This document shows, piece by piece, positions 21,046 through 55,440 of a stretch of 64,000 bases of DNA. Position 1 is the first letter of the stretch. Each line of letters opens with the position of its first letter. The stretch is from Escherichia phage vB_EcoM_FT: the sequence record MT682710.1, one strand, 5' to 3'. The position numbers and the translations under genes are program-made. The notes beneath the pieces are model-generated. The model did no database searches. It was not told the origin of the DNA and was given only the letters and a program-made list of their open reading frames with translations.

Positions 21046-21213
21046 CTATAGCAAAAGTTGCGTTTCATTTAATTGTTCTTCCGAACTTTCTGAAACTGGT
21101 AGTTCTTTAATGTAATTATAGCAAGGCCCAGGATGTACAGGACCTTTGTCTGTTTCAACAACCAATGCAGAATCGATTGGAGTTTTACAGACAACACAAA
21201 TCTTATCTGACAT
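21046..21213 (-). CDS. small Cys-rich protein (uvsY.-2-like), below the ORF-track size cutoff
   Basis: 55-aa ORF read by hand: MSDKICVVCKTPIDSALVVETDKGPVHPGPCYNYIKELPVSESSEEQLNETQLLL; CxxC...C arrangement; co-directional downstream of uvsY. Confidence 0.55.
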   Translation of the reverse strand: MSDKICVVCKTPIDSALVVETDKGPVHPGPCYNYIKELPVSESSEEQLNETQLLL

Positions 21214-24942: not shown

Positions 24943-25423
24943 TAAAGAAGTTTCTATTCCTAAGATGGGTCTTAAACATTATAACATTTTAAAAGATGTT
25001 AAAGGTCCTGATGAAAATTTAAAACTTCTTATTGATTCTATTTGTCCGAATTTATCACCGGCAGAAGTTGATTTCGTTTCTATTCATCTATTGGAATTTA
25101 ATGGAAAGATTAAATCTCGTAAAGAAATAGATGGTTATACTTATGACATTAATGATGTTTATGTATGCCAAAGATTGGAATTTCAATACCAAGGAAATAC
25201 ATTTTATTTTAGACCTCCTGGAAAATTTGAACAATTTTTAACTGTAAGCGATATGTTATCCAAATGCTTGCTTAAGGTCAACGATGAAGTTAAAGAAATT
25301 AATTTTCTTGAGATGCCAGCATTCGTTTTAAAATGGGCAAATGATATTTTTACAACTTTAGCAATTCCTGGCCCTAATGGTCCAATAACTGGAATTGGCA
25401 ATATTATTGGATTATTTGAATGA
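24890..25423 (+). CDS. 28: baseplate hub distal subunit gp28
   Basis: 177 aa; synteny; start may be an internal Met. Confidence 0.85.
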
Positions 25424-51981: not shown

Positions 51982-53010
<1,029 letters not shown>

Positions 53011-53021
53011 ATTATCTCCTA

Positions 53022-53354
53022 TTAAAAAGGATCAGGAACATATCCGCTAGCTTTAATCATTTTAATTAACGTTAACATTCCTTTGTTAACTGCTCGTGAG
53101 ATTTCATCAAAAACTTCATCACTAAAAAGTTCTAACACGCCCTTCTGAACTTTTAATTTACAGCCAACAATTTCTTCATCGCCTATAGTAAATTCATTAC
53201 CACCAATTCCACCGAAAAACTTAATTACACCAGTTAACTGTCTTCCACGAGAATATGGGTCGTGTGATAAAGTAATATGAGTCACCCCGGGTACAGTTTT
53301 AAATTGGCAGCGAATATTTACTTGTGAAATTCCAGTTACATGAATGTCAGACAT
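53022..53354 (-). CDS. hypothetical protein (frd.2-like)
   Basis: 110-aa ORF. Confidence 0.55.
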   Translation of the reverse strand: MSDIHVTGISQVNIRCQFKTVPGVTHITLSHDPYSRGRQLTGVIKFFGGIGGNEFTIGDEEIVGCKLKVQKGVLELFSDEVFDEISRAVNKGMLTLIKMIKASGYVPDPF

Positions 53355-53364
53355 AATATTTTCC

Positions 53365-53607
53365 TCAAATAGACTTTTTCACAATTTTCCAATCAGCTTT
53401 AAACTGATCGACGTCAGAGTGATAAATCCAAAATCCTGCGCTTTCACCGTCTTCATAAAGCGGACACCCATCACATTCATCTTCCCATCCCATGCCACGT
53501 AAAAGGTGTTCAGCTTTTTCAACAAGTTCAGAATCTTTACCGATGATATTAAAATACCATTTACCTCTAACTTCTGAATCTTTGATGCTCTGGCGTTGTA
53601 ATCTCAT
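53365..53607 (-). CDS. hypothetical protein (frd.3-like)
   Basis: 80-aa ORF with GGAG RBS. Confidence 0.55.
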   Translation of the reverse strand: MRLQRQSIKDSEVRGKWYFNIIGKDSELVEKAEHLLRGMGWEDECDGCPLYEDGESAGFWIYHSDVDQFKADWKIVKKSI

Positions 53608-53617
53608 TTTATTCTCC

Positions 53618-53686
53618 TTAGCAAGCTTTAATCAAAAGATATAAACAGACCAACATAACTGCTGCCATAATATAAGGTGCGAACAT
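53618..53686 (-). CDS. candidate 22-aa hydrophobic micro-protein / leader peptide
   Basis: MFAPYIMAAVMLVCLYLLIKAC read by hand; GGAG 9 nt upstream; just downstream of an early promoter; stop abuts the RBS of the next ORF. Confidence 0.35.
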   Translation of the reverse strand: MFAPYIMAAVMLVCLYLLIKAC

Positions 53687-53716
53687 TTTCTTTTCTCCAT
53701 TAGTTTTGATAGGGTA

Positions 53717-53746
53717 ATAGTATCACACTACTACCCTTCTGTAAAC
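53717..53746 (-). promoter_or_regulatory. early promoter: GTTTAC-N18-TACTAT
   Basis: Minus strand; upstream of the micro-ORF and frd.3. Confidence 0.6.
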
Positions 53747-54111
53747 TACTTTTTGAAAGTTTTTCGCAAAAGTTCAATGATTTCATCTACATTGTTTTCG
53801 TCAACAATGCAGTGAATTTTTGTTACGCCAGAAACTTTGTCTTTGACTTCATCTTCTTCAGAAGTCGGTTCTTTATACTCACGAAAACAATGAAATTCGT
53901 CTTCACAAACGTTAAAGTAAAAATGCTTTCCATTTGCGCATTCAATGTGTTTTATTACTCTAAATCCATCAACAAAGAAAGCTTCTTTAACTTCAAACCA
54001 TCCGCCATTTTCTTGAATAATTTTAACTATTGCTGAATTAGAACGTGGGCGATAATTAATAAATGTATCAATAAGTCTTGGAACAAGTTCATACTTTTTA
54101 CCGATATACAT
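53746..54111 (-). CDS. hypothetical protein
   Basis: 121-aa ORF; GAGGAAA RBS preceded by a hairpin. Confidence 0.6.
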   Translation of the reverse strand: MYIGKKYELVPRLIDTFINYRPRSNSAIVKIIQENGGWFEVKEAFFVDGFRVIKHIECANGKHFYFNVCEDEFHCFREYKEPTSEEDEVKDKVSGVTKIHCIVDENNVDEIIELLRKTFKK

Positions 54112-54155
54112 TATGTTTTCCTCATTTTAACGGGGCTGTAATAGCCCCTTGATAA

Positions 54156-54386
54156 TTATTGTTCAATCAATCCCATGTAAAATTCTGCGTCTTCAGAATC
54201 CATGCCATCACAATATTCATTAGCCATAAAGCGGGTGAGGTCTTCAAGAGGACCTTCAATGACAATAGAAAAATTGCAATAATTGGGATCATCGTGAATA
54301 CTTGTGATACTAAGTTCAGGATAACGATTACGAATAATTTCTTCGATATATTCAAAATCAACGATGTCAATATCAACTTTAGCCAT
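54156..54386 (-). CDS. hypothetical acidic protein
   Basis: 76 aa from MAKVDIDIV... with GAGGAAA RBS; upstream part of the track ORF overlaps the promoter. Confidence 0.55.
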
Positions 54387-54429: not shown

Positions 54430-54459
54430 ATAGTACCATGGAAGGACAAGGATGTAAAC
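54430..54459 (-). promoter_or_regulatory. early promoter: GTTTAC-N18-TACTAT, downstream of the gene 32 terminator
   Basis: Minus strand; GAGGAAA-ATG of the 76-aa ORF follows. Confidence 0.6.
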
Positions 54460-54476: not shown

Positions 54477-54509
54477 TTTGAAATAAAAAAGGGGACCCTA
54501 GAGGTCCCC
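54477..54509 (-). terminator. rho-independent terminator after gene 32
   Basis: Minus strand GGGGACC-UCUAG-GGUCCCC followed by UUUUUUAUUU. Confidence 0.8.
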
Positions 54510-54531: not shown

Positions 54532-55440
54532 TTAAAGGTCATTCAAAAGGTCATCTAGGTCCGTGTCATCAGCACTAGATGAACTGCCAGAGCTTGAGCT
54601 CATAAAATCATCTTCAGTTTTTGTATTGAAGTCATCAACATTGAATGCATCCAAATCATCAGCAACTTTATCAGCTTTCTTAGCAGCAGTTGCAGCGGCA
54701 CCGCCCATCACAGCAGTTCCCATAACTTGACCGAATTTAGTGCTCAGTTCTTCAAACGATTTGAATTTATCTTTAGAAGTCATTTCAGAAAGGTCAACCA
54801 TTTGTTCGAACAGTTCTTTCTGGAAAGATTCATCGTCAATGTTTGGAATCGCAGATTGATTCAGGAATTTAGATTCGTCGTAGTTACTAAATCCAGAAAC
54901 CTGTTTAACTTTCAGTACAAAGTTAGCACCTTCCCACGGACAAGTTACATCAACCGGAGTTTCACCCATTTCAACATCAACCGCAATCATCGCGTTGATT
55001 TTATCCCAGATTTTCTTACCGAAACGATATTTAAATACTTTACCTTCATTTTCTGGAGCAGCTGGGTCTTTTACAACAAGAATATTAGCCCAGTAAGAAG
55101 TTTTACGTTTAACAAGACCATACTCTTTATTGTCAGTGTTGTACAGATCATTTTTACTGATGTATTGACATACTGGGCAAGAATCGTAATCACCGTGGGT
55201 AGATGAACAGTTTTCAATATACCATTTACCATTTTTCTTGAAACCGTGATTTACAAGAATTGCGAATGGTGCTTGTTCATCATTTTTAGACGGAAGAAAA
55301 CGAATTACTGCTTGACCGTTACCCGCATTATCGAGTTTCAGTTTCCACTCGCCTTTATCTTCAGAAGAAAAACCACCTTTATTTCCAGCCAGTTTAGCCA
55401 TTTGTGCAGCGAGTTCAGCAGTAGATTTACGTTTAAACAT
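54532..55440 (-). CDS. 32: single-stranded DNA-binding protein gp32
   Basis: 302 aa; acidic Ser-rich C-terminus; autoregulatory operator upstream. Confidence 0.95.

Follow-up and report, generated by a model that had tools for sequence, protein, structure and literature searches.

Single-pass membrane proteins of fewer than 50 aa, including YobI (21 aa), YohP, MgtS, and AcrZ, were reportedly found in E. coli by the Storz laboratory through screens based on SD sequences and conservation. Type I toxins, such as Ibs, TisB, and ShoB, are apolar peptides of 19–35 aa that are produced from short mRNAs. In phage T4, the shortest annotated gene product, with 26 aa, is presumably Stp, a polar peptide that acts on the host restriction/anticodon-nuclease complex. 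Regarding the organization of early genes, the promoter-early stem-loops (PeSLs) of T4-type phages are mobile regulatory cassettes (PMC2839356, PMC4122927). Gp11 of phage PhiNM1 is reported to be a small membrane early-gene product that blocks cell division of S. aureus (PMC11237401). The locus described here encodes a very short hydrophobic peptide at the head of a predicted early transcript, and it resembles each of these systems in part.

The window, i.e., the whole 64,000-nucleotide stretch of DNA that was analysed, is from a Tequatrovirus genome; the 901-bp stretch around the micro-ORF is 100% identical to Escherichia phage HEMP5 and 95–99% identical to many T4-like phages. The minus-strand gene order is gene 32, frd.3, frd.2, the micro-ORF, frd.1, two extra small ORFs, and frd. 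The features of this region are as follows:

54532..55440, minus strand: gene 32
about 54156..54386, minus strand: frd.3 (Pfam Phage_FRD3), one gene further upstream than frd.2
53746..54111, minus strand: frd.2, 121 aa (Pfam FRD2, E = 9e-32; T4 annotation), which adjoins the micro-ORF upstream
53618..53686, minus strand: the micro-ORF, consisting of ATG, 21 codons, and TAA, and encoding MFAPYIMAAVMLVCLYLLIKAC
53365..53607, minus strand: frd.1, 80 aa (Pfam DUF5417, E = 3.7e-33; 96% identical to T4 Frd.1; T4 annotation)

The cistron downstream of the micro-ORF had been called frd.3 in the first-pass annotation; the DUF5417 match and the identity to T4 Frd.1 assign it to frd.1 instead. Between frd.1 and frd, the window carries a 110-aa ORF (53022..53354, minus strand; Pfam DUF7247) and an 81-aa ORF (52765..53010, minus strand) with no Pfam match. 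Both are absent from T4, where frd starts 71 nt after frd.1, and they represent another presence/absence polymorphism in the same hyperplastic stretch. Just past gene 32, a terminator-like hairpin is found on the minus strand (54491..54509; GGGGACCTCTAGGGTCCCC then TTTTTTATTT), followed by a second early-type promoter, TTTACA-17-TACTAT (54458..54430), ahead of frd.3.

The minus strand at the micro-ORF reads aatGGAGaaaagaaaATGTTCGCA...GCTTGCTAAGGAGaataaaATG, and its translation reproduces the hydrophobic 22-aa product noticed at first pass. The SD, GGAG (53698..53695), stands 8 nt (aaaagaaa) before the ATG, where a 9-nt spacer had been given. The TAA stop codon (53620..53618) lies directly next to the GGAG of frd.1 (53617..53614), so the earlier description of a stop codon abutting the next SD stands. 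The peptide carries a single charge, at K20, after 19 uncharged residues, and none of the haplotypes compared has a replacement at Cys14 or Cys22. The GRAVY value is 2.05, and it reaches 2.21 in the version of the Dhakavirus MN04. The peptide thus consists of an uninterrupted apolar segment with a flanking basic residue, as for a single-pass small membrane protein. For a membrane span, 19 apolar residues, one of them a Pro (position 4), make a rather short stretch. Two other readings of the same nucleotides were rejected. An internal start at Met7 is not preceded by an SD, and the frame of an overlapping 22-aa ORF (53632..53700, MEKRKCSH...) is not kept in MN04 or in the Mosigvirus ESh15.

Upstream of the micro-ORF, three features overlap or follow each other closely:

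53717..53746, minus strand: predicted T4-type early promoter, with −35 GTTTACA (53746..53740), a 17-nt spacer, an extended −10 TG, and −10 TACTAT (53722..53717)
53708..53739, minus strand: 14-bp hairpin with the loop UGA (−19.1 kcal/mol, z = −4.3), which overlaps the promoter spacer and the −10 box
53687..53710, minus strand: predicted 5′ leader of the micro-ORF mRNA, about 24 nt, with a start site placed from the position of the −10 box

The promoter scan returned TTTACA-17-TACTAT with an extended −10 TG (53745..53717, minus strand) and A-tracts upstream, which is the same site as the GTTTAC-N18-TACTAT promoter predicted in the first-pass annotation. The early-promoter consensus of the T4/PST PeSLs is TTTACW-N17-TAYWAT (PMC4122927), and the micro-ORF promoter fits this consensus. 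Its −35 region overlaps the stop codon of frd.2. From the end of the −10 box to the ATG there are 30 nt, and a leader of 23–25 nt is obtained on the assumption that transcription starts 6–8 nt after the box, in good agreement with the distance of about 25 nt proposed before.

Regarding the hairpin, equivalent structures with different stem sequences occupy the same place in RB69, ESh15, and MN04 (z −4.3 to −5.2), suggesting that a structure is conserved here, in frd.2 read-through RNA or in the DNA as an inverted repeat. By its position within the promoter, the predicted hairpin would exist only in one of these two forms. As no T-run follows, it is not an intrinsic terminator. No other copy of the promoter hairpin was found within the 64-kb window at up to 3 mismatches. 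Elsewhere in T-even genomes, as seen in teqskov, the module of promoter, hairpin, leader, and SD also stands upstream of internal-head-protein genes. The Dhakavirus leader of the micro-ORF and the internal-head-protein leader of teqskov are identical at 33 of 37 positions, with start codons within 1 nt of each other. Judging from these comparisons, the putative promoter-leader-SD module is a dispersed expression module akin to PeSLs.

Searches by tblastn and blastn against 50,697 phage records retrieved the same 200 records each, from three genera and with a single copy apiece. Approximately 196 of them belong to Tequatrovirus, including T4, T6, RB27, RB32, RB55, RB59, AR1, and PST; the remainder are three Dhakavirus records (MN04, UP19, and Esco_phi_B-01) and one Mosigvirus record (ESh15). 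The peptide is identical in 161 of the 200 records. T4 itself (AF158101.6) encodes it at 146018..146083 (minus strand), inside the 138-nt gap between frd.2 and frd.1, where no feature is annotated. Likewise, no CDS annotation covers the micro-ORF among the matching phage records listed. This is plausibly because gene callers impose a minimum gene length (about 90 nt in Prodigal). Among annotated T4 genes, the shortest encodes 26 aa (PMC4122927, Table 1).

An exact look-up of three peptide variants in about 15 billion proteins found none of them. Sequence searches of Pfam, NCBIfam, and PDB with the peptide gave no match, and PHROGs gave a sole match, phrog_32555, at E = 0.5; across these resources and the protein look-up, no homologue of known function was found. 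Pattern scans of IMG/VR and metagenomes recovered near-identical Tequatrovirus contigs only, with no new haplotypes or length variants. In bacterial and archaeal genomes, the degenerate pattern CLYLLIKAC* gave only one match outside T-even phages, CFYFFIKAC in an Asgard MAG, which lies antisense to a 444-aa transporter gene and was rejected as a chance match. No record of the micro-ORF was found in the literature or in databases. Literature searches found no T4 ribosome-profiling or peptidomics study covering it, and nothing relevant on unannotated T4 ORFs or mapped T4 early start sites.

The expectation of such an ORF by chance was estimated within the window. The micro-ORF is the sole ORF on either strand of the 64 kb that combines an ATG, an SD core at −16..−5, a length of 15–40 aa, and a GRAVY of at least 1.5. 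Random windows generated from a first-order Markov model contain a mean of 0.9 such ORFs, and 0.025 at a length of at least 20 aa and a GRAVY of at least 2.0, thresholds that were set after the fact. With an expectation of 0.9, the micro-ORF taken from one sequence alone would be only suggestive; it is the comparison of related sequences that lifts the candidate above chance. The 22 intergenic gaps of at least 60 nt contain only three SD-preceded ATG micro-ORFs of 10–59 aa. An SD-preceded micro-ORF of 17 aa (ggaggtctaaaataaa-ATG) lies in an intergenic gap at 25149..25202 (minus strand). An SD-preceded ORF of 55 aa (MSDKICVVCKTPIDSALVVETDKGPVHPGPCYNY...) occurs at 21046..21213 (minus strand) in a gap of the crude gene map, which has a 60-aa threshold, and is probably an ordinary small T4-like gene.

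The comparative set was small and consisted of 23 loci with 13 distinct nucleotide haplotypes from 3 genera, compared over 66 nt. All 13 haplotypes keep the ATG, the 22 codons, and the TAA, without indels or premature stops. The divergent copies differ at 4–13 of the 66 nt and retain the start, the stop, the length, and the hydrophobicity. Variable columns fall on codon positions 3, 1, and 2 at a ratio of 11/5/2. The Nei-Gojobori pN/pS values are 0.00–0.37 in the micro-ORF frame, and the other two frames show stops and higher ratios. The replacements seen (F2L, A8T/V/I, A9T/V, M11I, L12V, and V13I) all introduce apolar or small residues, and A3–M7 (APYIM), V10, and C14–C22 (CLYLLIKAC) are invariant. 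When 13 random substitutions, corresponding to the T4–MN04 distance, were simulated, an intact ORF with at most 5 aa changes was obtained with p of about 0.002, and an intact ORF that equals or exceeds the observed GRAVY with p of about 0.006. A haplotype spanning tree contains 25 events, of which about 13.5 are synonymous, compared with 20–27% expected neutrally; the P value of this synonymous excess varies with rounding and transition bias between 9e-5 and 6e-3. A single Dhakavirus lineage and a single Mosigvirus record contribute most of the divergence, and recombination may distort the event counts. In the same Tequatrovirus pairs, the micro-ORF resembles its neighbour frd.1: the micro-ORF has a pS of 0.30 and a pN of 0–0.019, and frd.1 has a pS of 0.30–0.36 and a pN of 0.02–0.03. 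The first-pass annotation had named conservation of the reading frame in relatives, with synonymous and non-synonymous changes compared, as a check on the candidate, and both the intact frame and the synonymous excess speak for it.

The sequence upstream of the start codon behaves differently from the frame. The leader, 21–29 nt in length, has 2- and 10-nt indels between genera, whereas the micro-ORF has none. Through these changes, an SD is kept 7–8 nt before the ATG in three different leaders:

Tequatrovirus leader: GGAG-N8
Dhakavirus leader: GGAG-N7
ESh15 leader: GAGG-N8 (AGGA-N7)

Synonymous variation is uneven along the micro-ORF, with changes in 6 of the 7 codons 12–18 and none in codons 3–7 or 19–22 (53621..53672, minus strand), which may reflect an extra constraint at the nucleotide level or a recombination mosaic. 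Taken together, the comparisons support well the view that the micro-ORF is a conserved coding sequence under purifying selection in which a predicted apolar helix is maintained, and it is very probably coding and translated. Of the two functions suggested at first pass, that of a small membrane peptide gains from the purifying selection and the maintained apolar helix, with the membrane location itself deduced from composition.

The micro-ORF is patchily distributed even among close relatives. In teqskov and many other Tequatroviruses, the gap between frd.2 and frd.1 is 54 nt, compared with 138 nt in carriers. The teqskov sequence without the micro-ORF reads tatcaaCTAAGGAGAATAAAATG, in which the promoter is joined directly to the frd.1 RBS, CTAAGGAGAATAAAATG. 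The difference of 84 nt corresponds to the micro-ORF plus one SD, and it is bounded by CTAATGGAGAAAAGAAAATG (53684..53703) and by the following feature:

53605..53621, minus strand: second RBS repeat, CTAAGGAGAATAAAATG, comprising the micro-ORF stop and then the SD and start codon of frd.1

Among 761 records matching the frd.2–frd.1 junction, 197 cover the micro-ORF, and about three quarters are without it, implying that it is dispensable and that any benefit is conditional. The surroundings also differ. The micro-ORF is ahead of frd.1 in Tequatrovirus and Mosigvirus, and ahead of the unrelated gene cef, between motB and cef, in Dhakavirus, where the peptide is MFAPYIMI[A/T]VIVICLYLLIKAC. In the Dhakavirus relatives IME341, LHE83, and ABTNLS3, approximately 90 nt are missing at motB–cef, and the breakpoints again fall within the RBS region; at both sites, close relatives lack precisely the micro-ORF and one SD. 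The gene before the micro-ORF promoter is a different one in AR1. The two sites and the shared leader module place the micro-ORF, as far as these alignments indicate, in the first-cistron slot of a dispersed early promoter-leader-SD module.

Based on these results, the best reading is that the micro-ORF is an immediate-early gene that is translated but dispensable and whose product is a single-helix inner-membrane peptide. To this full reading, of a functional gene for a membrane peptide that is moved as a cassette by recombination between RBS repeats, we assign a probability of roughly 0.7. In the proposed mechanism, host RNA polymerase would start at the T4-type early promoter right after infection, a timing suggested by the promoter type. 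The short unstructured leader would present the GGAG 8 nt before the ATG, and ribosomes would make the 22-residue peptide, as the SD and the evidence for selection indicate. The peptide would form one apolar helix (residues 1–19) ending in Lys-Ala-Cys and would insert into the inner membrane, presumably with a cytoplasmic C-terminus according to the positive-inside rule. There, it would most likely bind a host or phage membrane protein, or perturb the bilayer, via its C-terminal half, CLYLLIKAC. The invariance of this half and of the two cysteines suggests a specific interaction over bulk hydrophobicity. Finally, the micro-ORF and one SD would constitute a minimal cassette, gained and lost by recombination between the near-identical RBS repeats of T-even early genes and always landing in the first-cistron slot of the dispersed promoter-leader module.

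A bolder version of this reading is unlikely. It is that the 84-nt unit is a self-contained accessory cassette that hops between early-promoter slots by recombination at RBS repeats and that the membrane peptide has a specific anti-host role, which would account for the patchy, strain-variable distribution. Neutralization of a membrane-embedded defence effector or exclusion of a superinfecting phage are conceivable roles, each of them speculative. The further proposal of this version, that the micro-ORF may gate translation of whichever gene is downstream, is put forward just as tentatively.

Among the explanations that dispense with the function of the peptide or specify it otherwise, the one that survives best, though improbable, is that the act of translation matters and the peptide is a by-product. 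Ribosomes on codons 16–18 would melt the pairing of the downstream SD, and termination at the UAA right before the GGAG would tune or enable translation of frd.1 or cef. Stop codon and downstream SD are directly adjacent in every copy, also ahead of cef in Dhakavirus, and codons 16–18 (UCUUUU) can pair weakly with the downstream AAGGAGA. The predicted unpaired probability of the downstream SD GG is accordingly 0.16–0.17 in the window, 0.13–0.25 in UP19, and 0.37–0.38 in ESh15, compared with 0.91–0.92 in teqskov without the micro-ORF. The predicted helix behind this occlusion comprises 6 bp, two of them G-U, and partial occlusion is also predicted for the IME341 allele without the micro-ORF. 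The near invariance of codons 3–7 and 17–22, even at synonymous sites, also counts in favour of this explanation. A pure coupling ORF does not need the purifying selection on amino acids and the apolar-only replacements that are seen here. The two downstream genes are unrelated, and in most relatives they stand behind the same promoter without the micro-ORF.

The same observations bear on the suggestion, made in the first-pass annotation, that the micro-ORF is a leader peptide through which translation of the downstream operon is coupled. As a dedicated device, such a leader is not borne out. Neither a terminator nor a stable alternative fold was predicted at the locus, although the weak 6-bp pairing of codons 16–18 lowers the predicted accessibility of the downstream SD. 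The codons form no regulatory run, and the transcript from the predicted start through the micro-ORF is less structured than its shuffles (z = +1.9). Moreover, the peptide is constrained over its whole length, whereas a leader peptide should be largely free apart from regulatory codons or stalling motifs. A gene-specific leader peptide is therefore disfavoured, and generic translational coupling from the stop codon to the SD is possible. An Rfam search of 53300..54200 gave no match at E ≤ 1, so a known RNA family was rejected; together with the unstructured mRNA, this speaks against an RNA element at the locus.

Slimmer still is the chance that the product is a type I toxin-like or depolarizing peptide with which the phage would shut off the host or exclude superinfecting phages, and which an antisense RNA may hold in check. 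Its size and extreme hydrophobicity (GRAVY 2.05) resemble those of type I toxins, and a consensus promoter match is found on the opposite strand inside the micro-ORF (53642..53671, plus strand). This match scores 9/12, which is at background (14 such matches found, compared with 9.1 ± 2.9 expected from shuffles), and the peptide matches no curated NCBIfam or Pfam family. In any case, a toxin would be a special case of the preferred membrane-peptide gene rather than an alternative to coding.

The weakest explanation, that the 84 nt are non-coding spacer, i.e., 5′-UTR or recombination debris that travels with the promoter module and contains a fortuitous ORF whose conservation reflects recent horizontal spread, can draw on the AT-rich genome, in which 22-codon ORFs are not rare (about 0.9 per random 64 kb at the looser threshold), on the 128 of 200 copies that are nucleotide-identical over 86 nt, and on the silence of gene callers and annotators in the records listed, but it is very improbable in view of the frame, length, and hydrophobicity kept by the divergent copies with a synonymous excess, the indels seen in the neighbouring leader but not in the micro-ORF, the SD maintained in three different leaders, and an annotation gap for which the minimum length of gene callers plausibly accounts.

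Because the gene list of T4, the reference model phage, is taken to be essentially complete, a membrane peptide gene at this position would be of some consequence. If the preferred reading is true, the micro-ORF adds to this list an immediate-early membrane peptide shorter than the product of any annotated gene (26 aa), and even in T4, micro-genes escape notice because they are shorter than gene callers accept. The patchy spread and the two insertion sites provide a compact natural example of the shuffling of T-even accessory genes at RBS repeats. In a CRISPRi-ART screen of annotated T4 genes, frd.2 was the only fitness (“Fit”) gene of unknown function, and the micro-ORF is not among the targets (PMC11879866). 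Screens built on annotated genes, of which CRISPRi-ART is an example, have not interrogated the micro-ORF between frd.2 and frd.1. The micro-ORF promoter begins right at the stop codon of frd.2; targeting the 3′-terminal part of frd.2 with guides or deletions could therefore affect the micro-ORF and frd.1 as well.

On this evidence, the predicted peptide belongs with the small phage and bacterial membrane peptides overlooked by annotation. Its interest is modest, and is somewhat raised because the micro-ORF is in T4 itself and illustrates the shuffling of micro-cassettes. With the small membrane proteins of E. coli, it shares the size class, the single apolar helix, and one flanking basic residue, and, like them, it was missed by gene callers and recognized by its SD and the conservation of its frame. 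Unlike them, it is phage-encoded, stands behind an immediate-early phage promoter, and shows no similarity to curated families; its membrane location is a prediction. Stp likewise is very short, dispensable, early, and variable among relatives, but the micro-ORF peptide is apolar and 4 residues shorter, and has no homology to it. PhiNM1 Gp11 is also reported to be a small membrane protein from an early phage gene and would be a precedent for the proposed action at the envelope. Its phage and host are unrelated, and no sequence relationship is expected. In contrast to type I toxins, the micro-ORF is the first cistron of a predicted polycistronic early phage transcript and matches no family, and where type I toxins have a cognate antisense RNA, it has a background-level promoter match of 9/12 and no Rfam match.

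The genomic context is closest to that of the PeSLs. In common with them, the micro-ORF locus has the early-promoter consensus, a strong stem-loop, and a 3′ end formed by an SD and start codon, sits exactly at points of insertion, deletion, or replacement between close relatives, and is part of a module dispersed in the genome. Published T4/PST PeSLs have their stem-loop immediately before the promoter; the micro-ORF hairpin instead covers the spacer and the −10 box, and no comparable stem is present upstream of the −35 region of the micro-ORF promoter. For PeSLs, excision or integration would proceed through mini-circles between tandem copies; here, the breakpoints are SD repeats and not a pair of PeSLs on either side, and the inserted unit carries just 22 codons. 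The micro-ORF module is thus PeSL-like rather than a textbook PeSL.
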